Source of the DNA: Nitrospirota bacterium
Lineage (GTDB): Bacteria; Nitrospirota; UBA9217
Length of the DNA: 64,000 nt
NCBI GenBank assembly: GCA_963790205.1
Contig: CAWBNQ010000001.1
Span: forward strand, 416,001 to 480,000
Direction: 5' to 3'
How positions within the stretch are numbered: the stretch's first letter is position 1; each line of letters starts with the position of its first letter. This document shows, in pieces, positions 30,004-44,895 of this stretch. Under the pieces are notes generated by a model. That model saw only the letters and a program-made list of their open reading frames with translations. It had not been told where the DNA came from and did not search any database. The position numbers were made by a program, and so were the translations under genes.

Positions 30004-32676
30004 ATGGCAAATCTTTCTATCAATGGCAGGAAAATTACTGTTCCCAACAATAGTACCATTCTCGACGCTGCGCGGCGAAATGACATCTATATCCCGACGC
30101 TCTGCGACGACCCGAGGCTCGAACCCTACGGCGGATGCAGGCTCTGCCTCATCCAGGTGAAAGGCATGCCCAGGCCGGTGACCGCGTGCACCACGCCGGT
30201 CACCGAGGGCATGGAAGTCGAGACCACGAACGAGCAGATCGAGCGCCAGCGCCGTACCATTGTCGAACTTCTCCTGTCCGACCATCCCAACGACTGCATG
30301 GTCTGCGAGCGGGCCGGTGACTGCACGCTCCAGGAACTGGCCTACTTCTACGAGATCCGGTCGAACCGCTTCGCCGGAGAGCGGCGACAGTATACGAAAA
30401 AGGACCTGAACCCCTTCATCGAGCGCGACATGGAGAAGTGCATACTCTGCGGCAAGTGCGTGCGCGTGTGCGACGAGATCCAGGGCCTCGGCGCGATCGA
30501 TATCGCGGGGAGGGGCTTCACCGCCAAGGTAACGCCGCCCTTTGAAAAGGACCTGGACTGCGAGTTCTGCGGCCAGTGCGTCAGTATCTGTCCCACCGGC
30601 GCGCTCATCGGCAAGCAGTCGCTCGGCAAGGGCAGGCAGAAGGACGTGAAGGAGGTCGAGACCGTCTGCGGCTACTGCGGGTGCGGGTGCAACCTCACCC
30701 TGCATGTGAGCAGGAACGAAGTGGTCCGCGTCACCTCGCGGCCGGACACGATCAACGAGGGCTGGCTCTGCGTCAAGGGACGGTTCGGATACAGCTTTAT
30801 CAACAGCCCGGACCGGCTCACGACGCCGCTCGTCAAGAAGGACGGTTTGTTCATTGAAGCGTCCTGGGACGAGGCCTTCGCCCTCATTGCCGAACGCTTA
30901 AGCGCCATCAAGGAAAAACACGGGCCCGATGCCATCGGCGGGCTCTCTTCGGCCCGGTGCACCAACGAGGAAAATTATCTTTTCCAGAAATTCATCCGCG
31001 CAGGCATCGGCACGAACAACGTCGATCACTGCGCGCGCTACTGACACAGCTCGACCGTGGCCGGTCTGGCCACCGTATTCGGTTCCGGGGCAATGACGAA
31101 CTCGATCGCCGAGATCGAGAACAACGACGTACTGTTCGTCATCGGCTCGAACACCAAGGAGAACCACCCCATCGTAGCGCTTCGGATGATCAAGGCGAAG
31201 CGCAAAGGAGCGAAGATCATCATCGCCGACCCGAGGCGGGTCCCGATGGTCCGGTTCGCGGACATCTGGATGCAGCACAAGCCCGGCACGGATGTGGCGC
31301 TTTTGAACGGGATGATGCATGTGCTCCTGAAGGAAGGCCTGGTCAAGAAGGATTTCATCTCTTCCATGACCGAAGGGTTCGATGACGAGTTCAGGAAGAA
31401 TATCGAGGACTTTACGCCCGAGGCCGCCTCGAAGATCACCGGCGTACCCGCGGACACGATCGTCAAGGCCGCGCGCCTGTACGGGAGCTCGGACCGCGCC
31501 GGTATCTACTATACGATGGGAATCACCCAGCATGCCCACGGCACGGAGAACGTGTTCTCCATCGCCAATCTCGCGCTCATGACCGGAAACCTCGGCAAGG
31601 AGGCTGCCGGCGTCAACCCGCTCCGCGGACAGAACAATGTCCAGGGCGCCACGGACATGGGATGCATCCCGAACATGTATCCCGGATACCAGCGCGTGAA
31701 CATACCGGCGATCCGGGAGAAGTTCGAGGCCCTGTGGAAGGCAAAGCTCTCCGAAAAGGAGGGGCTTACCGCCACGGATATGCTTCCGGCCGCGGAAAAA
31801 GGCATCATCAAGGCCCTGTACATCATGGGAGAAAATCCGGTCATCAGCGATCCCGACGTTGCCCATACCACCAAGGCGCTCAAGGCGCTCGATTTCCTCG
31901 TCGTGCAGGACATCTTCATGACCGAAACGGCCGCGCTTGCGCATGTCGTATTGCCCGCCTCATCGTTCGCGGAGAAGGTCGGGACGTTCACGAACACCGA
32001 GCGGAGGGTTCAGCGCGTGAGAAGGGCGGTCAACTCCCCCGGGGACGCGATGAAGGACTCGCTCATCATCATGGAACTCTCGAAGCGGATGGGCTACGAA
32101 ATGTCCTATCCGCATACCGTCGAGATCTTCCGCGAGATCGGACAGGCCTGGCCCGCGATGGCGGGGATGAGCTATGCCAGGCTCGAGGACGGCGGCCTCC
32201 AGTGGCCCTGTCCCACGCCGGAACATCCGGGAACGCAGTTCCTGTTCAAGGGCGGATTCCCGCGCGGCAAGGGCAGGCTTACGCTCGTGAAATACAAACA
32301 GTCGGTTGAGCTTACTGACAAGGACTATCCGTTCATCTTGACCACGGGGCGGCAGTTGTTCCAGTACCACACCGGCGGCATGACGCGCCGGGTAAAGCCG
32401 ATCAACACGGTCTCGCCGGAGTCCTACGTCGAGATCAACCCAGATGATGCCCGGTCCCTTTCAATCAAGGGCGGATCGAACGTGAAGGTGAGCTCGCGCA
32501 GGGGTTCCATTACCGTGAAGGCGTTGGTGTCGAAGAGGCCGGCAAAAGGCGTCGTGTTCATACCCTTCCACTTCAAGGAAGCGGCGGCCAATGTGCTTAC
32601 GAGCAGCAGCTCCCTCGATCCCATAGCCAAGATCCCGTCGTTCAAGGTCTCGGCGGTGAGGATCGAAAAGGCGTAA
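30004..32676 (+). CDS. fdhA: Selenocysteine formate dehydrogenase alpha subunit with NuoG-like N-terminal FeS domains (890 aa by UGA read-through)
   Basis: ORFs 30004-31044 and 31057-32676 share a frame across TGA 31042-44: DHCARY-U-HSSTVAGL..FGSGAMTN; RGQNNVQG; CGYCGCGC. Confidence 0.93.
31045..31076 (+). promoter_or_regulatory. Bacterial SECIS element
   Basis: GTGGCC-GGTCT-GGCCAC hairpin (31057-31073) starting 12 nt after the UGA; loop resembles the E. coli fdhF SECIS. Confidence 0.85.
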
Positions 32677-35138: not shown

Positions 35139-35179
35139 AGTGAGTATTACCGGCGGAACCATTCTAATAAAAAGTGCCC

Positions 35180-35380
35180 CTATGAGCTCTTTTTCCCGTC
35201 GTCTTGCGAACCGGACTTGGTCATTTCTTTCGGCTCATCCTTATCGTTCAGTGCTTTCTTAAATGCTTTTATACTTTTTCCCAGTCCCGCCCCAAGTTCA
35301 GGCAGCTTGCCCGGACCAAAGATGATCAGTACGATCACTAAAATAATGATCAAATGCATCGGCTGAAAAAGGCCTTCCAT
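35180..35380 (-). CDS. tatA: Twin-arginine translocase TatA/E
   Basis: [42 protein letters not shown]. Confidence 0.92.
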
Positions 35381-35720
35381 GGAATATCCTCCTTGTGTGT
35401 TTCATTGCTTGAGCATGTGCCAGAAGCGTAACCGTATCATGGAACAGCATCGACGTTTGTCACCCGGTTTACGTGACCTTCGATGCTTCCCTTCCCCATC
35501 CCATCAGGATATGCCGGAAAAGCGTCCATTTCAAATCATGGTTCAAACACTGTCTTGTTACACTGTTATCTGTATTCAGAATGACCGCTATCAACATCAT
35601 GTTTCGCATCCTTCAAATAAGGCTTCGAAGAGTCTTGTAATTAAAAGTATCTCCCTTTTTTCATTCCCCATGGCCTCGTCTCGCAGAAAACTCATCCCAT
35701 GGCAGGCAAAGCAAAGTATC

Positions 35721-36647
35721 TTATTTCAGTATCGAAGAGCCGCCAACGCCAATAAGAAAAAACATCTGCCGCTCCCGGTTTCGGTCTTCCAGATTGTACC
35801 CGATCTCTGCAAAGAAATGACTCTCGTCGAAAAACCAGTTCTTATGGCTCTGTTCCGAATAAAAAAGAACTCCTATCTGCTGCCTCGTCAGGTCGGCCGC
35901 CTCAGCGTGCACGAGTTCGTAATAGGGACCGAGGAATATGCTGCCATTGCCGGGTCCGCCGCTGATCTCTTTCAGCACCTGCGTGCGGTTCGCGTAGAGA
36001 TGGTCGCCGTTTCTGAGCAGGGTATCGTATTCCTGTTCAAGAAAGAAGGGTCCCATGCCCGGGAACCGGTATCGTGCGATGTCCGATTGATTGCGGAGAA
36101 CAATATCACCGATCTTCAGCTGGACCGTGGGCTGGAACAATATCCGACTGCCGAAGCCTGATTCTTCAGTTCCCCTCCGCGCCCTGAGTTCTTGATTGCC
36201 GAAGGGATCCTTGCCCGACGAAAAGGACAGCAGTCCGCCGTTTCTTCCGAAATAATAATAGCCGTCGCATTGCAGCCGGGCGACAAGAAAAAGGGCGGGC
36301 ATCCATTCGAACGCGATCGACGGCTGCGTATAAGCGGGGTTGACGTCAATGCCCGCCCCCGTTTGCCAGTAGGAGCTTACTGTGTCATAGTGATCATCGT
36401 AGCGATACGAATCCTTATACTCAAAACCTCCGGATGCGTCAGCTCCCAGCGGATTGTAGGTCCCGATTAAATCTGCATATGCCGACCACTCTTTGCCCAG
36501 TTTCTCCTTGGTCTCCGGTGCTTTTTCCTGAAGGTTCTGGTCGGATGACTTCGACGCTTCGTCGGCCAATGCTTCAGGCAAAAAGAACAGATGAAAAAAA
36601 ACCAACAGCATGAGCAGGCCGGATGCGAACGCTGCCGGCCTCCTCAT
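35721..36647 (-). CDS. Exported protein, possibly an outer-membrane beta-barrel
   Basis: Signal peptide ending ALA/DE; alternating aromatic/Gly strands; alternative coupled GTG start at 36734. Confidence 0.65.
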   Translation of the reverse strand: MRRPAAFASGLLMLLVFFHLFFLPEALADEASKSSDQNLQEKAPETKEKLGKEWSAYADLIGTYNPLGADASGGFEYKDSYRYDDHYDTVSSYWQTGAGIDVNPAYTQPSIAFEWMPALFLVARLQCDGYYYFGRNGGLLSFSSGKDPFGNQELRARRGTEESGFGSRILFQPTVQLKIGDIVLRNQSDIARYRFPGMGPFFLEQEYDTLLRNGDHLYANRTQVLKEISGGPGNGSIFLGPYYELVHAEAADLTRQQIGVLFYSEQSHKNWFFDESHFFAEIGYNLEDRNRERQMFFLIGVGGSSILK

Positions 36648-36730
36648 GCTGTATTTTTCCCGTGACGCATAAGAATGTCGGTATCGTTTGCAGCGGGATA
36701 CCCGTGTCAGCTCTGGAGCGCCGGTGCCGA

Positions 36731-37549
36731 TCACGGCCTTACGGAATGGCTTGGCCCGCAGGCCCGATCTTTGAAGAAATGAATGATCTCATCTGCAGCC
36801 ACGCTGCGCTGGTTGTCGATCGGGACCATATGGTAACAGTCGTCGAGCAAGAGCATGTGGACGTCCTTGCTTTTGATATGCTTCTGCACATACAAAGCGT
36901 TCTTTGCACTCGCAAGGTCGTCCTCCTTCGAATGGACGATGAGCGTCGGCGCCGTCACCCTGGCAATGACCTTTTTCTTCATGACACCGATAAGCCGGTA
37001 AAGCTCTCGCATGCTGACACCGGGAACGCTTTCGTGGGCAATCGAGCTGTCCCGCATGCCTTCGACGATCCGGACCCGGAGTGCTTCGTTCTTGATGCCG
37101 TAGGGTTCCCGTTCTTTGAAGGAGTAGACATGGCAGGCGGGAGCAACGTAAGCCAGCGGCAGCAGGAATTTATACCAGGGAAGTCCCCAGCCGTCATAAA
37201 ACAAGGTGGTCGAAATAAGCGAAACAGCGTTTACCTCTTCTTCAAGATCAGCGGACAATTTAAGCGCCAAAAGCGCGCCCATGCACAGTCCGGCAACGGA
37301 AACGGTCTCATGGGTGCGCTTCAGTTCCTTGAACGAGTCGTACACAGTCCCGTACCAGTCCTGCCACCGGGTCTTCTTCAGGTCCGCGAGCGTCGAACCG
37401 TGGCCCGCGAGACAGGGCCCCATTACGGTGAAGCCGGCGCCGTTCAGTTGCCTGGCCAGATATTTCATCTCATAAGGGCTTCCGGTCAGACCGTGGATCA
37501 GGAGAACGGCATGGTCTCCGCCGCTCATGTCTATTTTATGATCATTCAT
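36731..37549 (-). CDS. Alpha/beta hydrolase (carboxylesterase-like) with Cys nucleophile
   Basis: LIHGLTG, GHG, elbow GLCMG, HSKEDD, CYHM. Confidence 0.88.
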   Translation of the reverse strand: MNDHKIDMSGGDHAVLLIHGLTGSPYEMKYLARQLNGAGFTVMGPCLAGHGSTLADLKKTRWQDWYGTVYDSFKELKRTHETVSVAGLCMGALLALKLSADLEEEVNAVSLISTTLFYDGWGLPWYKFLLPLAYVAPACHVYSFKEREPYGIKNEALRVRIVEGMRDSSIAHESVPGVSMRELYRLIGVMKKKVIARVTAPTLIVHSKEDDLASAKNALYVQKHIKSKDVHMLLLDDCYHMVPIDNQRSVAADEIIHFFKDRACGPSHSVRP

Positions 37550-38771
37550 ATTTCCTCACGATAAGCACGGCGTTTGTTCCTCCGAAGGCGAATGAATTCG
37601 ACATGACGGTTTTAAGATCCAATCCGGTCCTGGCCTTCACCGGCACGTAGTCGAGATCGCACTCCGGGTCCGGTACGGTCAGGGTTGATGTGGGCGGCGC
37701 TGTCTGATGTTTAAGCGCGAGGACCGCTGCAACGAGCTCTATCGCTCCGGCCGCGCCCAGGAGATGGCCGTGCATCGATTTTGTGGAGCTGACGGGGATA
37801 TCGTAGGCCCGCCTGCCGAACACCTTTTTGATCGCCTGGGTCTCGGCCAGGTCATTGGCGACCGTAGCCGTACCATGGGCATTGATGTAATCAATATCCC
37901 CGGGGCTGATGCGTGCTTCTTCCAGCGCTGCCTCGATCGCATATGCCTGACCCTCCACGGAGGGCTTGGTAATATGGCTGGCGTCCGCTGTCGAGCCGTA
38001 GCCGATCATCTCGCCGTAAATGCGGGCGCCGCGGTGCAGCGCCCGTTCAAGGGTCTCCAGCACTATGACTGCGGCCCCTTCGCCCAAAACGAAACCGGTC
38101 CGGTCCTTTGAAAAGGGCCTGCAGGAGGTCGACAGGTCGTCCGCTTCCAGCGCCAGGGTCCCGATCGAGTCCCAGCTCATCATAACCCCGAAGGTGAGGA
38201 GCGATTCCGTCCCACCGGCAAGCATGACATCGGCATATCCATGCTTGATCTGACGAAAGGCCTCGCCGATAGCCACCGCAGAGGATGAACAGGCGGTGGA
38301 GAACGTCAGGCAGGGGCCCTTCATTCCGTGCTCGATCGAAAGGCAGGAGGCGGCCGCATTGTTCATCACCATGACAACCGTGAGCGGATGGACCCGCCTG
38401 GCGTTCTGCAGCAGGACCTCTGTATAGGAGTCATCAAGGGTCCGCGCGCCCCCCATGCCGGTCCCCAGATACACCCCGCACCTTCTTGTCTCCTCAGCCG
38501 TGAGCTGCAGGCCTGCGTCCTTGACCGCCTGGGCGCCGGCAACCAGGGCAAACTGGCTCACCCTGTCCAGCGTCCGCGCAATTTTTTTGGGAAAGTGCTC
38601 TTCGGCCTTGAAGTCCGCTTCGGCGGCGATCCTGATCGACAACCGCTTGTCGAAATCCTGCGATAATCTCCTGATCCCCGATTTTCCCGCCGCCAGGCTG
38701 CTGAAAAAATCTTCACACGTATTTCCCACGGGCGAGACGACGCCCATGCCGGTAATGACCACTCGCCTCAT
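37542..38771 (-). CDS. fabF: Beta-ketoacyl-ACP synthase (FabF-like, accessory copy)
   Basis: RRVVITGMG, TACSSS, NAHGTAT, KSMHGHLLGAAG, SNSFAFGG. Confidence 0.9.
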   Translation of the reverse strand: MRRVVITGMGVVSPVGNTCEDFFSSLAAGKSGIRRLSQDFDKRLSIRIAAEADFKAEEHFPKKIARTLDRVSQFALVAGAQAVKDAGLQLTAEETRRCGVYLGTGMGGARTLDDSYTEVLLQNARRVHPLTVVMVMNNAAASCLSIEHGMKGPCLTFSTACSSSAVAIGEAFRQIKHGYADVMLAGGTESLLTFGVMMSWDSIGTLALEADDLSTSCRPFSKDRTGFVLGEGAAVIVLETLERALHRGARIYGEMIGYGSTADASHITKPSVEGQAYAIEAALEEARISPGDIDYINAHGTATVANDLAETQAIKKVFGRRAYDIPVSSTKSMHGHLLGAAGAIELVAAVLALKHQTAPPTSTLTVPDPECDLDYVPVKARTGLDLKTVMSNSFAFGGTNAVLIVRKYE

Positions 38772-38784
38772 GCATACACCCCGG

Positions 38785-39045
38785 TCATACCGCTTTCACA
38801 TGCTGCTCGGCGGCCAATCGATCGATGACATCGATCATGTCTTGAATGGAATTGAGCGTTACTTCGCGGTCGGGGATTTTGATGTCGAACTCCTTTTCGA
38901 GGGCGAACATGAACTCGATCTTATCGAGCGAGTCAAGGCCGAGGCTTTCGATGGTCGCCGCCGGCTGCAGGCGTTCCTCCTCGAAATCAAAGTTTTCGAG
39001 AAACAGTTTTTTAATGCGTTCATAGGTACTCACGGTGTGTTTCAT
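38785..39045 (-). CDS. Acyl carrier protein
   Basis: LGLDSLD phosphopantetheine site, LEKEFDIKIPD. Confidence 0.92.
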   Translation of the reverse strand: MKHTVSTYERIKKLFLENFDFEEERLQPAATIESLGLDSLDKIEFMFALEKEFDIKIPDREVTLNSIQDMIDVIDRLAAEQHVKAV

Positions 39046-39086
39046 TCTCCTTTTCGTCTGGTTTGTCGGGAAGCCGGTCGTCCCGT

Positions 39087-40478
39087 CTATCCGCCGCATC
39101 GCTTCAGCAACGCTTCAAAAAGTCGTATGAACAAATCGATCTCCGCATCGGTAATGGTCAATGCAGGCGCCAGCGTGAAGACGTTTTTATAATAGCCGCC
39201 CACATCGAGCACCAGACCGTATTTTTTCCCGTCGATCGGGATGTCGCCCTTCATCCCCTCTTGAAATATCATGTCCGTGAGCTTTTTGTCGGGCGTGAAA
39301 CCGTCAGGCTTCGTCATCTCGATCCTTACGGCCAGCCCCAGACCGTCCACATCGCCGATGACGGCATGTTTTTTCTGAAGGTTTTTTAACCGCGATACGA
39401 GGTACTGCCCCTTCTCTGAAACGATCTTCGCAAAATCATTTTTTTTCAAAAGCTCCATGGTTGCAAGCCCGGCCGCAGTGCCCAGGGGATTGCTCGAAAA
39501 CGTCGAATGCGTCGATCCTGGCGGAAACATCTTGGGGGTAATCAGTTCTTCCCGCGCCCAGATCCCGGACAGGGGATTCAGGCCGTTCGTCAGGGACTTG
39601 GCAAAGGCGACGATGTCTGGCCGGGCCCCGAAATGCTCGAAAGCCCATAGTTTCCCGGTCCGGTAAAAGCCCATCTGGATCTCGTCATCAACAAGTAATA
39701 TACCAAATTTCTGCAGCACCGTCGCCAGCCGCATAAAGTATTCAGGAGGAGGAATAATATAACCGCCCGTTGCCTGGACCGGCTCAGCAAAAAAAGCGGC
39801 ATATTCGACGTCATTCTCCTTGGTATCGATCACACCGTAGTACTCTGTCTCAAAAAGCTTCTCGAACTGCCGGACGCACTCGTATCCACAGGTCGCAAGC
39901 TCTTTATCGTAAAAGCACCGGTAACAATAAGGATAGGGAATAAAGGTTGCCCTGCTGCCGAAGTGTCCATACCTTTTCCGGTACCGGAAACTGCTCGTGA
40001 TCTCCGTCGCGGCAAGGGTCCTTCCGTGATAACCGCCCATGAAGGCGAACATGAGAGATTTCCCCTTTTTATAATTTCGGACGAGTTTGATACTGTCCTC
40101 TATCGCCTGCGCTCCGCCGACATTGAAATGCACTCTCCCTTTTGAGCCGAACCTCTTTTCGGTCTCCCGGGCAATGGTTGCAGCCAGAAGGATCTTCTCC
40201 TTGTGGAGGTACTGTGATGCTACCTGGGGAAGCCTGTTCATCTGGCGGTTGTGGGCTTCCTCTATTTCCCTGTTCCGATACCCGAAATTCACGGCCGAGT
40301 ACCACATCTGCACGTCCAGATAGGGAGTCCCCTGCAGATCATACAGCCACGACCCTTCGCATTTATCGAACAAAACGGGGCGGTCGGCATAGTGGACCGT
40401 ATCGCCGTAGGAACAATAACGCTCTTCGAGGTCCAACAGCTCTTGCTCCGAGAGCCGACCGGTTTGAATGTTCTCCAT
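39087..40478 (-). CDS. Class III PLP aminotransferase, RtxA N-domain (DHAP aminotransferase)-like
   Basis: GYHGRT, DEIQMGFYRTG, FAKSLTNG, HSTF; N-terminal YCSYGDTVHY and QMWYSAVNFGY recalled from the RtxA family. Confidence 0.85.
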   Translation of the reverse strand: MENIQTGRLSEQELLDLEERYCSYGDTVHYADRPVLFDKCEGSWLYDLQGTPYLDVQMWYSAVNFGYRNREIEEAHNRQMNRLPQVASQYLHKEKILLAATIARETEKRFGSKGRVHFNVGGAQAIEDSIKLVRNYKKGKSLMFAFMGGYHGRTLAATEITSSFRYRKRYGHFGSRATFIPYPYCYRCFYDKELATCGYECVRQFEKLFETEYYGVIDTKENDVEYAAFFAEPVQATGGYIIPPPEYFMRLATVLQKFGILLVDDEIQMGFYRTGKLWAFEHFGARPDIVAFAKSLTNGLNPLSGIWAREELITPKMFPPGSTHSTFSSNPLGTAAGLATMELLKKNDFAKIVSEKGQYLVSRLKNLQKKHAVIGDVDGLGLAVRIEMTKPDGFTPDKKLTDMIFQEGMKGDIPIDGKKYGLVLDVGGYYKNVFTLAPALTITDAEIDLFIRLFEALLKRCGG

Positions 40479-40480
40479 GA

Positions 40481-41161
40481 TCAATCCTTTCCTGCTTCAA
40501 CCGACTGCAGCGGAATCGCCCGTATCCTCTTTGTCTGCAGAGATGCCGTTATCTCGCCGAAGTTGTCGAACGGGGTGTGGGGTATGTTGTTCTCGCGGCA
40601 ATAGACGGTGAGCTTTTTCTTGGTGAAGACATGGTGTGATTTGTGGGCCAGACAAAAATCGCTTCGTCCGTCACCGACGAGGATGAGAGAGCGCTCCCTG
40701 CCGAGGTCGGACACGGCCATGCACTTGCAGTTTGCCGAATTGCAGTCCGGCTGGGAATAGGGGAATACGGTTTTCATCGTACCGCCTTCCTCGCGCAATA
40801 TGTTGGCATAAACAGGAACCTGCCCGAGCCCTGCGTTCGCAAGGAGCCTTTCTATGAACACCTGGAATCCGTCGCTGACGATGGCGTAGGGTATGCCCCG
40901 GGCATTCAGGTAGCCGGCGAAGTCCTTGAATGTGCTGTCGATTGAAAAACCGTCGATATAATCCAGGAGCTTTCCGAGCGGCTGATCGATCATGGACATC
41001 TGCCGTTCAAGGCATTCCCTGGAGCCGATGATGCCCTGCTCCCACAACCGCTCCACCTCCTGCCATTCAGGACGCGCAAATGACTGCAGGACCGCGTCTA
41101 TGATGTCTACATCGGTCACCGTCCCGTCAAAATCGATAGCGACAAAATAAGGCCCTTTCAT
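40481..41161 (-). CDS. MtnX-like HAD-IB phosphatase
   Basis: DFDGT, VSDG, CKC, GDGRSDFC. Confidence 0.88.
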   Translation of the reverse strand: MKGPYFVAIDFDGTVTDVDIIDAVLQSFARPEWQEVERLWEQGIIGSRECLERQMSMIDQPLGKLLDYIDGFSIDSTFKDFAGYLNARGIPYAIVSDGFQVFIERLLANAGLGQVPVYANILREEGGTMKTVFPYSQPDCNSANCKCMAVSDLGRERSLILVGDGRSDFCLAHKSHHVFTKKKLTVYCRENNIPHTPFDNFGEITASLQTKRIRAIPLQSVEAGKD

Positions 41162-41164
41162 TGA

Positions 41165-41590
41165 TTATTGCTTCCTTTCTTCTCTCCTGCTTTGATCATC
41201 GAAGTTACCTTGCCCTGTGTTGTTTTTTATATTTTTTCTCAGCTCTGATTTCAATTTTTCGATATTGAGGGGCTTGGCGAGGTAATCAATGCCTCCTTGG
41301 CCCATTGCTCTAGCATAGCTTTCCAGGGACGCATGGGCCGTCATGACGATAACAACGGGAAGCTCGGCGAGTTTTTTGAGATCGTGAAACAACTCAAGTC
41401 CATCACCATCGGGCAGCCGCAGATCGAGAAGGATCGCGGCAGGCTGGAAACTCTTCAGGGCCTGCCGGGCGCTTTCAAGACTCCCGGCCACGGATACGGT
41501 AAATTCATCTTCAATTGCGAGCTGCAGGGATTCCGTGAAGTTCCGCTCGTCGTCAACGATCATTACCGTCGGTTTGTCAGGGATGTTCAT
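41165..41590 (-). CDS. Single-domain response regulator
   Basis: IVDDE, LDLRLPDGDG, MTAH, KP. Confidence 0.85.
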   Translation of the reverse strand: MNIPDKPTVMIVDDERNFTESLQLAIEDEFTVSVAGSLESARQALKSFQPAAILLDLRLPDGDGLELFHDLKKLAELPVVIVMTAHASLESYARAMGQGGIDYLAKPLNIEKLKSELRKNIKNNTGQGNFDDQSRREERKQ

Positions 41591-41691
41591 GTGTACACCG
41601 TGTGAAGTAAGAGAACTATAACTGCGATTAAACCCAGATCGCAGCGAATGTTTTCTCACAATTTTTTATAATAGCAAAATGTACGTATTAA

Positions 41692-41707
41692 TGCAAGTTA
41701 AATGCCT
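41692..41707 (-). promoter_or_regulatory. sigma54 promoter
   Basis: Minus strand AGGCATT-TAAC-TTGCA with GG/GC at -24/-12; next to a sigma54 activator gene. Confidence 0.65.
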
Positions 41708-41905
41708 ATTTTAACATACTGTTATTTCAATCTACTGCGTGAGCCATCGCTGGACATGCGCAAAAATTGTATACGAGGATTGCAGGGCGAGACTTATGTC
41801 TCGGTCGAACGCGAACTGACTTTTAAAGAAGGTTGGAATTGGATTGCGTACGCAGCAGGTCCATGGGATATTACGGGTGCTACCGGCAGTTGGATCTCGG
41901 GGAAA

Positions 41906-43252
41906 TTACAGTGAGTATTGATTGAGCTTATAATGAAGCTGTCTTACCGATATGCCCAGGATCCTGGCCGCTTCTGTTTTATTGTTCCCTGCAGCGACCA
42001 TTGCGTTTTGAATGCAATTCCTTTCCACATCCGCCACCGCGTCTTTAAGGGCGACCGTGAGGACCGCGTTTTCCATCCCGGCCGCATTTTTGCCCGGCCC
42101 GGGACCAAGCACGAGATCATCCGTGTCAAGGATATCTTTTGTCGCGGTTGCTACCGCACGGTGGATGCACCATTTGAGTTCCCGGATGTTTCCGGGCCAA
42201 ACATGGCGCAGGAGGAGCTCCAATGCCCGATTGGAAAGATCTTTGACGTTTTTGTTATAGGCATAACTGGCTTCGTTCAAGAAAGCTCTCGCGAGGAGAG
42301 GAATGTCCTGTTTGCGGTCGCGCAGCCGGGGCAGCTCCAGCACAATTCCGGCTATCCGGTAATAAAGGTCCTGGCGGAACCTGTTCTCCGGATCGTTCAA
42401 ATTCTTGTGCGTAGCGGTAATAAGCCTGAAGCGTGTTTTTCGTTCACGCGCATCGCCGAGTTTAAAGTAACGACCGGATTCGATAACACGAAGCAATTTA
42501 GCCTGAGTTTCATCTGCCAGTTCCCCGATCTCATCGAGGAACAAGGTGCCTTCCTCGGCCCGTTCTATCAATCCTTCCTTGGTGCCGGCGGCACCGGAGA
42601 AGGCCCCTTTCACGTATCCGAACAGTTCGCTCTCAAAAATGTCCCTGGGAACAGCAGCGCAGCTGATCGTCACCATCTCACCGTGCTGGCCGGACAGGTC
42701 ATGGACCCACTGCGCCAGCTTTTCCTTGCCGGTCCCTGTTTCACCCTGAATAAGAACGGGTATCGGAAGAAGGGCCACGGCCGGCACTCGTTCGACAATT
42801 GTTTTCATTGAGCCGGTCCCTGAAGTGACAAAGGGCGGCACGATCCTTTTCATCTCGCGGTCAAGGCTGCTGATTTTCTTCTGGAGCGACCTGTTCTCGA
42901 GATAGACCCCCAGTTCCCGCTTCAACTTATCGATGTCCATGGGTTTCGTGACATAATCGACAGCGCCTTCCTTAAGCGCGTGGATGGCGTTCTCAACGGT
43001 TGCAAAAGCGGTCATTACGATAACGATGGGCATTCGATGGCTATTTTTCAGTTCGCGCAGCAGCTCAATACCCTCCCCGTCAGGCATATAAACATCGAGC
43101 AGAATGGCGTCCGGCGTACTGTCCTTGAGCGCGGCCCGCGCCATGCTCAAACTGGAGACTGAGACGACGGAAAAAGCGTCCTCAATCGCCAGTTGCAGCG
43201 ACTCGGTAAAATTCTTTTCGTCATCAATAATCAGAACAGCAGGTTTTTTCAT
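41906..43252 (-). CDS. NtrC-family sigma54-dependent response regulator
   Basis: Receiver, GETGTGKE, ESELFG..GAFSGA, LFLDEI, WPGNIREL, Fis-type HTH. Confidence 0.95.
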   Translation of the reverse strand: MKKPAVLIIDDEKNFTESLQLAIEDAFSVVSVSSLSMARAALKDSTPDAILLDVYMPDGEGIELLRELKNSHRMPIVIVMTAFATVENAIHALKEGAVDYVTKPMDIDKLKRELGVYLENRSLQKKISSLDREMKRIVPPFVTSGTGSMKTIVERVPAVALLPIPVLIQGETGTGKEKLAQWVHDLSGQHGEMVTISCAAVPRDIFESELFGYVKGAFSGAAGTKEGLIERAEEGTLFLDEIGELADETQAKLLRVIESGRYFKLGDARERKTRFRLITATHKNLNDPENRFRQDLYYRIAGIVLELPRLRDRKQDIPLLARAFLNEASYAYNKNVKDLSNRALELLLRHVWPGNIRELKWCIHRAVATATKDILDTDDLVLGPGPGKNAAGMENAVLTVALKDAVADVERNCIQNAMVAAGNNKTEAARILGISVRQLHYKLNQYSL

Positions 43253-43256
43253 GTTG

Positions 43257-44429
43257 TCAGGTCTTTATCCGTTTCAGGGGAACCGATATAATAACTCGCG
43301 CACCCTTTTCCATTCTTGCCAGGGATAGGGATCCGCCGTGCGCCATCGCAATTTTTTGGGAAAGATACAAACCCAGGCCGCCGCCCCGCGATCGGCTTGT
43401 TACAAAAGGGGCCGTCAGTTTTTCCAGATCGGCAGTCAGGGGAAATCCACTGCCGTTATCTTCGAACACTATTTCCGCGAAAGCCGCTTTCTCATGGGGG
43501 CTATGCACGTTCACGCGCACCTTGTTCGCCGACGCTTCGCGGCTGTTTCTGATAAGGTTCTTGAACAGCAGGCCCAGATAAAAACGATCTCCATAGATCA
43601 TGTAATTATCGGATATTTCAAGCAGCAGGCCGGTGAGAACGTCTCCCGTAAAAAAGCTCTTGATCGGGATCCACTCTTCGTTCAGCACATCGATGTCTTT
43701 CCCGTATACCAGCAGATTGTCTATCAACTGTTGAGTGCGATTCAGCTCCTCGCTCGTCAGCGTCATGAATCGTTTTATGAATTGCTCATCCGCATGTCGC
43801 GCGGGTAGCGCCTGGACGAGGTTGGAGATGGTTCCGATAGGGGTCTTCAGCTCATGAGCGAGCGCGGCCGACATGCGCCCGACAAGCGCCAGTGCTTCCT
43901 GCCGTTCCAGCGCGGAATGAAGTTCCGCATGCTCTACTTCAAACTGTTGTTTCATTAAAAGCGTGCGCTTCTTGTTTTCGGTGAAAAACACCGTGAAGGA
44001 GAACACAATGATGGTCGACGCGATTCCCATCATATAGTCCGGCACATCGAGATGCTCCAGCTCTGACTTTAGGAACTTATTGCGCACGTAAACGTCGAGT
44101 GCATACCCCTTCCCCGGCAACGTACACAAAAATACCGCATCTTGGGTGGCTTCGCCTCGCCTGTCCGTCCGGTCTTCGCGGACAACCACCTTATCGGCCA
44201 TGACGGAGTCAGCGAACTTTAAGATGAAGTTCTTTTCTTCGCGCGCTGTGGAATATACTGCCGATTCTCTGAACGATGCGACCGCATTTTTCATGTCGTC
44301 TTCCAGCGTTTTGCGGATCTTTTCCTCGACAGTGACATTTTCGAAACTGTCGGCCAAATAAGTGACCGCAATTCCAATGAGCAGTGAACCGACGAGGTAG
44401 GAGACGATTTTTAAAGTCTGCTTCAGCAT
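43257..44429 (-). CDS. Membrane sensor histidine kinase
   Basis: Two TM segments, LAHELKTP, NLIRNS, DNGSG, GGLGL. Confidence 0.92.
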   Translation of the reverse strand: MLKQTLKIVSYLVGSLLIGIAVTYLADSFENVTVEEKIRKTLEDDMKNAVASFRESAVYSTAREEKNFILKFADSVMADKVVVREDRTDRRGEATQDAVFLCTLPGKGYALDVYVRNKFLKSELEHLDVPDYMMGIASTIIVFSFTVFFTENKKRTLLMKQQFEVEHAELHSALERQEALALVGRMSAALAHELKTPIGTISNLVQALPARHADEQFIKRFMTLTSEELNRTQQLIDNLLVYGKDIDVLNEEWIPIKSFFTGDVLTGLLLEISDNYMIYGDRFYLGLLFKNLIRNSREASANKVRVNVHSPHEKAAFAEIVFEDNGSGFPLTADLEKLTAPFVTSRSRGGGLGLYLSQKIAMAHGGSLSLARMEKGARVIISVPLKRIKT

Positions 44430-44539: not shown

Positions 44540-44700
44540 CCAGTTGTAATACGTAAGCTGCCCTCCGAGCCTTTCTCGATATTGAATACGATGGCCGCGC
44601 CTTTGCTCAGATGGTGGAGTGGAGAAGGAGGAAGGCATATTACTTCTTCCCTGATGGCTAAAGCTTACCAATATGGTGTCTGGGCGAAGTATTTTTAGAC
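44540..44700 (-). mobile_element. Degenerate integrase-core transposase remnant
   Basis: Fragments KILRPDTIL, HQGRSN and IQYRERLGGQLTYY resemble N- and C-terminal motifs of an rve-type transposase family. Confidence 0.5.
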
Positions 44701-44895
44701 ATCTTGCTTAACGATTTCCGGGGAACTCTTCAATTTAGAATAGATGCAACTGCCGTTTAGTACAGGAAGAGGTCAGTAGCATATACACTCATCAGTAACT
44801 ATCCGGTGTTTTTTAAGTTGAATTGACGAAATCGTATATATGCGATATTCTCGCAATTTATTCTCGTTGCTACCCGCTGTAGGCGTCGATAAAAA

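Follow-up and report, generated by a model that had tools for sequence, protein, structure and literature searches.

A conserved gene cassette with its own acyl carrier protein and an unusual class III PLP enzyme as a candidate pathway for an amine-bearing envelope lipid

INTRODUCTION

Several amide-linked lipids of bacteria are made with a dedicated acyl carrier protein (ACP) and an acyltransferase of the GNAT type, as in ceramide synthesis by Spt, ACP and bCerS and in ornithine lipid synthesis by OlsB or OlsF. For the capsule of Campylobacter jejuni, the accessible text of two reports describes an amidation module in which Cj1437 provides serinol phosphate and Cj1436 ethanolamine phosphate, Cj1438C is the amide ligase and Cj1435 the phosphatase (PMC12409886, PMC13276843). 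Serinol phosphate is also the product of RtxA, a two-domain protein whose N-terminal domain forms it from dihydroxyacetone phosphate (DHAP), according to the available part of one report (PMC3222319), and the available part of another describes a seven-gene rtx operon for P. phymatum (PMC5789663). Here we analyze an operon at positions 35721-44429 of a 64,000-nucleotide stretch of a Nitrospirota genome (GCA_963790205.1, contig CAWBNQ010000001.1, positions 416,001 to 480,000; hereafter the window), for which a preliminary description had proposed the synthesis of an acyl-serinol through an RtxA-like aminotransferase.

We hold, with middling confidence, that the product of the cassette to which this operon belongs is an amine-bearing envelope lipid of the N-acyl amino-alcohol type. 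The relationship to RtxA, from which serinol had been deduced, did not survive direct comparison.

RESULTS

The five genes at the center of the operon, all on the minus strand, encode an MtnX-like HAD-IB phosphatase (40481-41161), a class III pyridoxal phosphate (PLP) enzyme hereafter called the aminotransferase (39087-40478), a dedicated ACP (38785-39045; PF00550), a FabF-type ketoacyl-ACP synthase (KS; 37542-38771) and an alpha/beta hydrolase with a cysteine nucleophile (36731-37549). A genome scan returned at least 549 relatives of the aminotransferase among 600 candidate stretches; the 80 that were kept, together with four chosen plasmid records, form the set of 84 loci used throughout, in which the aminotransferase is at least 60% identical to that of the window and many loci are cut by contig ends. 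Beside the aminotransferase, 81 of these loci have the phosphatase, 46 the KS, 42 the ACP and 24 the hydrolase, and none has the exported protein of the window operon. The question of synteny raised in the preliminary description is thereby answered in its favor: the gene set is conserved elsewhere, and the cassette occurs across several phyla. Among 60 relatives of the genome under study its distribution is patchy, the aminotransferase being present in three, some of which may overlap with the 84-locus count.

The company that these genes keep varies with the lineage. In Nitrospirota, Omnitrophota and Proteobacteria the recurrent partners are a pair of EamA transporters, a FemAB-like GNAT, an arginase-fold protein and a DegT-like enzyme, and in Acidobacteriota they are a GT28 glycosyltransferase resembling monogalactosyldiacylglycerol (MGDG) synthase and a PaaK-like ligase. 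Other recurring neighbors are enzymes of lipid metabolism, namely a desaturase, a cyclopropane synthase and PAP2, while five loci consist of just the phosphatase, aminotransferase, ACP, KS and hydrolase. The ligase was found in 48 of the 84 loci and the hydrolase in 24, never both, with neither in the remaining 12. On a Roseomonas mucosa plasmid (NZ_CP025188, locus L097) and in locus L126 the aminotransferase is replaced by a class III enzyme resembling glutamate-1-semialdehyde aminomutase (GSAM), a candidate non-orthologous replacement; the Roseomonas copy of the cassette also has a kinase and a sigma54 regulator.

Within the genome under study (G000), a second copy of part of the operon points to further members of the pathway. 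A stretch of 384 bases (38715-39098), holding the ACP gene and the first fabF codons, is repeated at 96% identity on contig C3, where it encodes an identical 86-residue ACP (about 203780-204040). The two ACP genes differ at six positions, all of them synonymous third positions, the random expectation being about 21% of changes (33% of transitions), whereas the fabF remnant beside the C3 copy is decayed. Next to it follow two EamA genes, a FemAB-like GNAT (PF04339/PF13480) and a PAP2 gene, and the order ACP-EamA-EamA-GNAT is also that of the intact cassette L109, where phosphatase, aminotransferase, hydrolase, KS, ACP, EamA, EamA and GNAT stand in a single row. Identity between the C3 GNAT and the GNATs of the 84 loci is low, at 20-28%, but close homologs of the C3 protein were found in 80 metagenome loci, and of the 34 that are at least 6 kb long, 11 also carry the aminotransferase, nine the phosphatase and eight the hydrolase. 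An assembly error is an unlikely source of the duplicated ACP, given the exclusively synonymous changes and two peat sequencing runs (X1 and X2) that contain both flanks with roughly doubled depth over the ACP; one contig spans the junction between the fabF remnant and EamA, this peat evidence coming from one study and from contigs only, no single piece of which covers the whole stretch. Because of the C3 partners, the close GNAT homologs found with the cassette, the gene order of L109 and the peat runs, the window operon is, on comparative grounds, one half of a larger cassette that is split in this genome with the ACP retained in both halves. We infer that the C3 GNAT uses the cassette's dedicated ACP. 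This GNAT is a second candidate acyltransferase besides the hydrolase; the preliminary description did not recognize the larger cassette. The split arrangement predicts a FemAB-like GNAT that acts together with the cassette ACP, and such a GNAT would more likely be an acyl-ACP transferase than an aminoacyl-tRNA transferase. Upstream of the C3 ACP copy no sigma54 site was found, the best score being 11.7 with the matrix described below. The first EamA gene (L087:9197-9766, on C3) shares its reading frame with the start ATG of the decayed fabF remnant, so that translation from there could add a short foreign extension to the N-terminus of the protein.

The aminotransferase belongs to class III (PF00202) by its fold, its PLP lysine and its D-E-x-Q motif, and it forms a distinct and tight subfamily: 34 plasmid records are about 60% identical to it and the next matches drop to 31%. 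Its closest named homologs are from Nitrospirota, and its solved relatives are 4-aminobutyrate (GABA) and ornithine transaminases and racemases at 24-28% identity. None of the 25 NCBIfam matches listed for it reaches the cut-off, the top score being 288.6 against 552. With residues counted from the TTG at 40484, the PLP lysine K296 is present and, like D267 and Q270, invariant in the 84 homologs; R155, R167, R169 and T239 are likewise found in all 84, K433 and T437 in 83, and D427 in 82. T239, D427 and T437 occupy positions where typical transaminases have Glu or Arg, and T239 and T437 align with E and R of 7vno (alignments to 7vno and 3n5m). If the glutamate switch and the carboxylate-binding arginines of class III enzymes lie where we presume from the usual numbering, the alignments indicate that this switch and both usual arginines are absent and that the distal pocket is arginine-rich. 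The invariant R155, R167 and R169 would fit an anionic group such as phosphate. Taken together, these residues speak for a substrate that carries a phosphate and for chemistry outside the standard transamination, without naming the substrate; decarboxylation or a lyase reaction would agree with the absence of the usual arginines. The preliminary description had made its case depend on the enzyme not grouping with ornithine, GABA or diaminobutyrate (DABA) aminotransferases. Low identity to solved relatives, different key residues at the switch and arginine positions, and scores below the equivalog cut-offs led us to reject a GABA, ornithine, acetylornithine or DABA aminotransferase, as well as a racemase.

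RtxA-type proteins carry a class V domain (PF00266, PhnW-like), whereas the window enzyme is of class III. A search for longer homologs yielded 10 fused PF00266-PF01053 proteins of 803-840 residues, nine of them named from Bradyrhizobium, including one from B. elkanii. On NC_010627, the first genes of a run that matches the P. phymatum rtx operon encode a class V aminotransferase, a Cys/Met-metabolism enzyme and a desaturase. In the databases the RtxA-type proteins are annotated as 2-aminoethylphosphonate (AEP) transaminases, and we identify them as RtxA from their domain architecture, length and operon, together with the accessible parts of PMC3222319 and PMC5789663. In BLASTP comparisons the window aminotransferase has no similarity to the B. 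elkanii protein (P0125; E=0.65) or to that of P. phymatum (E=6.3). When the symbiotic plasmid of P. phymatum was searched with the window enzyme, only two class III matches at 29-31% appeared and the rtx operon was not retrieved, and the matches of this genome to P0125 (24-27%) lie outside the operon. Three motifs, YCSYGDTVHY, QMWYSAVNFGY and LPQVASQYLH, had been taken as those of the RtxA N-terminal domain; they are present in the window sequence, but the best matches in the 10 fused proteins cover 3-4 of the 10 letters of the first, 3-4 of the 11 letters of the second and 5 of the 10 letters of the third. In 205 sequences of the window enzyme's own family, the first matches in at least nine of 10 letters in 199, the second in at least nine of 11 in all 205 and the third in at least eight of 10 in 201, which marks them as a signature of that family. 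Homology to RtxA is rejected on these grounds, and because it was the sole basis for serinol, the serinol assignment is left without support from homology. The same description had held that the product should not be rhizobitoxine, and in this it was right: no O-acetylhomoserine sulfhydrylase domain and no RtxC desaturase gene was found in 35721-44429. As the RtxA lead was false, serinol is only one among several head groups to consider, and we regard it as an improbable one.

The preliminary description fared well on the layout of the operon, its intact FabF-like synthase and its cysteine hydrolase: the nine open reading frames (ORFs) all lie on the minus strand and overlap or are closely spaced, and their families and catalytic residues were confirmed. 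The phosphatase passes TIGR01489 (86.3 against a cut-off of 81.55), has the DFDGT motif and MtnX (2fea) as its top PDB match, and also matches the phosphatase family PF06888. The KS passes TIGR03150 (496.3 against 493.75) with an intact Cys-His-His triad (C161/H299/H336). The hydrolase, placed in the monoacylglycerol lipase/Est30 family by its PDB matches, has C89 in a G-L-C-M-G motif, D210 and H240; in 24 homologs the nucleophile is Cys in 21 and Ser in three.

Ahead of these genes stand a sensor histidine kinase (43257-44429, minus strand; HisKA and HATPase_c in Pfam), a sigma54 enhancer-binding response regulator (bEBP; 41906-43252, minus strand; REC-AAA-HTH in Pfam) and a stand-alone receiver domain (41165-41590, minus strand; Pfam) that is 50% identical to the receiver of the bEBP and has the same position in L005 and L096. 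Hydropathy predicts two membrane helices in the kinase (about residues 8-26 and 132-150) flanking a short periplasmic domain. A minus-strand -24/-12 site of the form GG-N10-GC (41692-41708) scores 16.0 out of a maximum of 18.2 with a matrix that we built from the sigma54 consensus, a score equalled in one of 1000 shuffles, and aligned sites are found in L005 and L096. Some 60-70 bases upstream of it, a minus-strand block CCCTGCA...GTATAC..TTT.TGCGC (41758-41787) is conserved among the window, L005 and L096 amid diverged intergenic sequence and is likely the binding site or enhancer for the bEBP. The bEBP has GAFSGA instead of GAFTGA, as do the bEBPs of L005, L006, L020, L021 and L027; it is the only such instance among 19 motifs of this kind in the genome, and GAFSGA is listed among the variants that retain activity in the accessible part of one report (PMC4641369). 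The -24/-12 element, the upstream enhancer and a bEBP with a working-type contact motif thus agree at the sequence level with the sigma54 site, bEBP and kinase first noticed ahead of the operon. Because of the conserved enhancer element, sigma54 control is well supported for the lineage of the window, and it is not universal for the cassette. Kinase homologs of at least 42% identity occur near the cassette in six of the 84 loci. This genome also has a 58% identical paralog of the kinase (C1 724669-725832, L088:8670-9839), which follows lpxC at a distance of about 450 bases and has no adjacent regulator.

The last gene of the operon (35721-36650, minus strand) encodes an exported protein that matches no Pfam or NCBIfam family and is predicted to be an outer-membrane beta-barrel, the model being confident (pLDDT 89) with a signal-like N-terminal helix. 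The fold resembles autotransporter barrels and small outer-membrane channels (Z 18.6, root-mean-square deviation 2.8 over 206 aligned residues, 6-11% identity). Of 64 family genomes, 11 encode the protein, and in two of these 11, the window's own and G036, its gene adjoins that of the hydrolase. It is near the cassette in none of the 84 loci and in none of the 80 metagenome loci, and we reject it as a core member; it may be co-transcribed with the operon here as a loosely attached gene.

Several further features of the window may be recorded. Past the operon, an element of 130-240 bases (35177-35415) has copies of 70-80% identity on contigs C3, C5, C8 and C10, one of which is only some kb away from the cassette half on C3. 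The intergenic sequence upstream of the kinase (44554-44735) has a 77% match on contig C2. An ORF at 30004-32676, which we take from its motif to encode a formate dehydrogenase alpha-like protein, is interrupted by a single in-frame TGA (31042-31044; HCARY-U-HSSTVAGL) that is likely read through as selenocysteine.

DISCUSSION

The pathway that we propose has five steps, all of them inferred. The PLP enzyme would convert a small phosphorylated metabolite to an amino-alcohol phosphate, for which serinol phosphate, 3-amino-propanediol phosphate and ethanolamine phosphate are candidates. An acyl chain bound to the dedicated ACP would be lengthened by FabF and passed to the amine, as an amide or ester, by the GNAT and/or via the cysteine of the hydrolase. 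The HAD phosphatase would then strip the phosphate, probably after acylation, since in the C. jejuni module the phosphatase (Cj1435) acts after amidation and we transfer that order by analogy. Where present, the EamA pair would carry the lipid over the inner membrane.

The synthesis of an acylated amino alcohol accords with the finding that all but three of the 84 loci pair the PLP enzyme with the phosphatase, with the neighboring lipid enzymes and with the ACP-EamA-EamA-GNAT run on C3. In addition, each well-represented version of the cassette has a candidate for acyl transfer, either the PaaK-like ligase (48 loci) or the hydrolase (24). A number of observations weigh against it. The mutual exclusion of ligase and hydrolase largely tracks lineage, both types occurring within Omnitrophota (quick tree), and L126 has both a ligase and a GNAT. 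In three genomes of the same family that carry the aminotransferase (86-91% complete), neither GNAT query found a match. The ACP and KS are absent from seemingly complete loci of phosphatase, aminotransferase and hydrolase, such as L001, L003, L016, L017 and L020, and the arginase-fold and DegT-like partners are unaccounted for by the scheme. No member of the aminotransferase subfamily has an established substrate, its solved relatives being just 24-28% identical, and the hydrolase, with lipases as its closest solved relatives, may degrade rather than build. On the side of regulation, 24 related loci were examined for sigma54 sites, 23 of them scorable, and at a threshold of p <= 0.005 a site was found in only five of the 23, and in three of the eight that have a bEBP nearby.

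Other explanations can be considered. The cassette might, like the Arn system, work through an undecaprenyl-phosphate carrier and decorate an existing envelope polymer or lipid A with an amine or amino sugar, with ACP, KS and hydrolase as an acyl-tailoring add-on. ArnE/F-like EamA pairs, a DegT-family PLP enzyme, a GT-C glycosyltransferase (PMT_2), PAP2, GlmS and an undecaprenyl-diphosphate phosphatase near some copies, as well as the kinase paralog downstream of lpxC, would agree with this. Nevertheless, among 37 hand-picked neighbors scanned, PMT_2 stands beside only three loci and GlmS beside two, neither clustering as a common partner; an ArnC-like GT2 does not recur, and an Arn-like locus apart from the cassette exists on C3 of this genome (matches below curated cut-offs), so that we consider an Arn-like role unlikely. 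An acyl-serinol could also have arisen convergently rather than from RtxA, by transamination of DHAP to serinol phosphate, the cysteine hydrolase then forming an N- or O-acyl serinol that the kinase might perhaps sense as a signal. The near-invariant pairing of aminotransferase and phosphatase fits a ketose-phosphate substrate, the MGDG-synthase-like GT28 of Acidobacteriota would accept a diacylglycerol mimic, and five loci hold just phosphatase, aminotransferase, ACP, KS and hydrolase; yet there is no similarity to RtxA-type proteins, and D427 and T437 replace arginines which, as we assume for their roles, usually hold the carboxylate of the amino donor. This convergent route is, in our judgment, quite improbable.

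The PLP enzyme could instead aminate the acyl chain itself, as a beta-keto-acyl-ACP or fatty aldehyde, with the hydrolase freeing an amino-fatty-acid product for secretion. PigE and the aminotransferase domain of mycosubtilin synthesis are precedents for such chemistry, and the adjacent KS, ACP and thioesterase-like hydrolase, the ABC, TolC or MFS exporters that trail some copies and the GSAM-like substitute in Roseomonas and L126 would all be in keeping with it. However, the PLP enzyme is accompanied by the phosphatase (81 of the 84 loci) much more consistently than by the KS (46) or the ACP (42), and we regard amination of the chain as very unlikely. The resemblance of the hydrolase to monoacylglycerol lipases and the match of the phosphatase to PF06888 could further be read as a remodelling or salvage unit in which lipase, phosphatase and PLP lyase dismantle an amino-lipid, but the dedicated ACP and the intact FabF, together with the GNAT or ligase that most versions carry, point towards synthesis, and we consider salvage the most remote of these explanations.

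Synthesis of an N-acyl amino-alcohol lipid, the reading that we prefer, also retains the broader proposal of the preliminary description, a pathway devoted to an acyl-amine lipid, equipped with a separate ACP and KS and under two-component and sigma54 control, which the conserved gene set and promoter elements support. In literature whose coverage left subscription journals and supplements outside, we found no description of the cassette, and in the accessible portion of a review of acyloxyacyl amino lipids (PMC12971839) the terms 'serinol', 'ethanolamine' and 'GNAT' do not occur. The cassette spans several phyla, and its culturable carriers include Rhizobium (for example R. leguminosarum 23B, NZ_CP050090), Agrobacterium, Xanthomonas and Roseomonas. 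As no study of it was found, it probably encodes an as yet unassigned envelope lipid and unexplored enzyme chemistry. More tentatively, and as a possibility that we would not presume, the product may be an undescribed class of membrane lipid, a mimic of ceramide or diacylglycerol on a small amino-alcohol backbone. A new kind of class III PLP enzyme without the usual carboxylate-binding arginines would build it, and a private ACP would supply the acyl chain for transfer by one of several interchangeable catalysts, the cysteine hydrolase, the FemAB-like GNAT or the PaaK-like ligase. In Acidobacteriota it would also be glycosylated, and it would occur across Nitrospirota, Omnitrophota, Acidobacteriota and plant- or skin-associated Proteobacteria.

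Among known systems, the Arn pathway resembles the fuller versions of the cassette in the EamA pair, the DegT-family enzyme and two-component control. In contrast, the class III enzyme, HAD phosphatase, ACP, KS and hydrolase have no Arn counterpart, and no ArnA, ArnC, ArnD or ArnT was found in the window operon or in its C3 half. The separate Arn-like operon of this genome (L090, C3 908000-922000) comprises ArnT, EamA, ArnB, ArnC, ArnA-like pieces and ArnD; its arnC-like gene and neighboring ORFs look fragmented in the ORF calls. RtxA of B. elkanii shares PLP dependence with the window enzyme but combines PF00266 and PF01053 where the window has PF00202, and the window operon is without a desaturase or sulfhydrylase. 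The C. jejuni module, compared here by its partial description and as an analogy only, likewise has within one locus a PLP enzyme that yields an amino-alcohol phosphate, together with a step that forms an amide and a phosphatase. Its acceptor is a uronic acid of the capsule, however, its ligase is ATP-dependent, it has no ACP or KS, and Cj1437 is a PLP enzyme of class I/II. Ceramide and ornithine-lipid synthesis differ in the class of the PLP enzyme and in the GNAT family, which is PF04339/PF13480 here, but they share with the proposed pathway a PLP enzyme or amine head group, an acyl-ACP donor and an N-acyltransferase of the GNAT fold.

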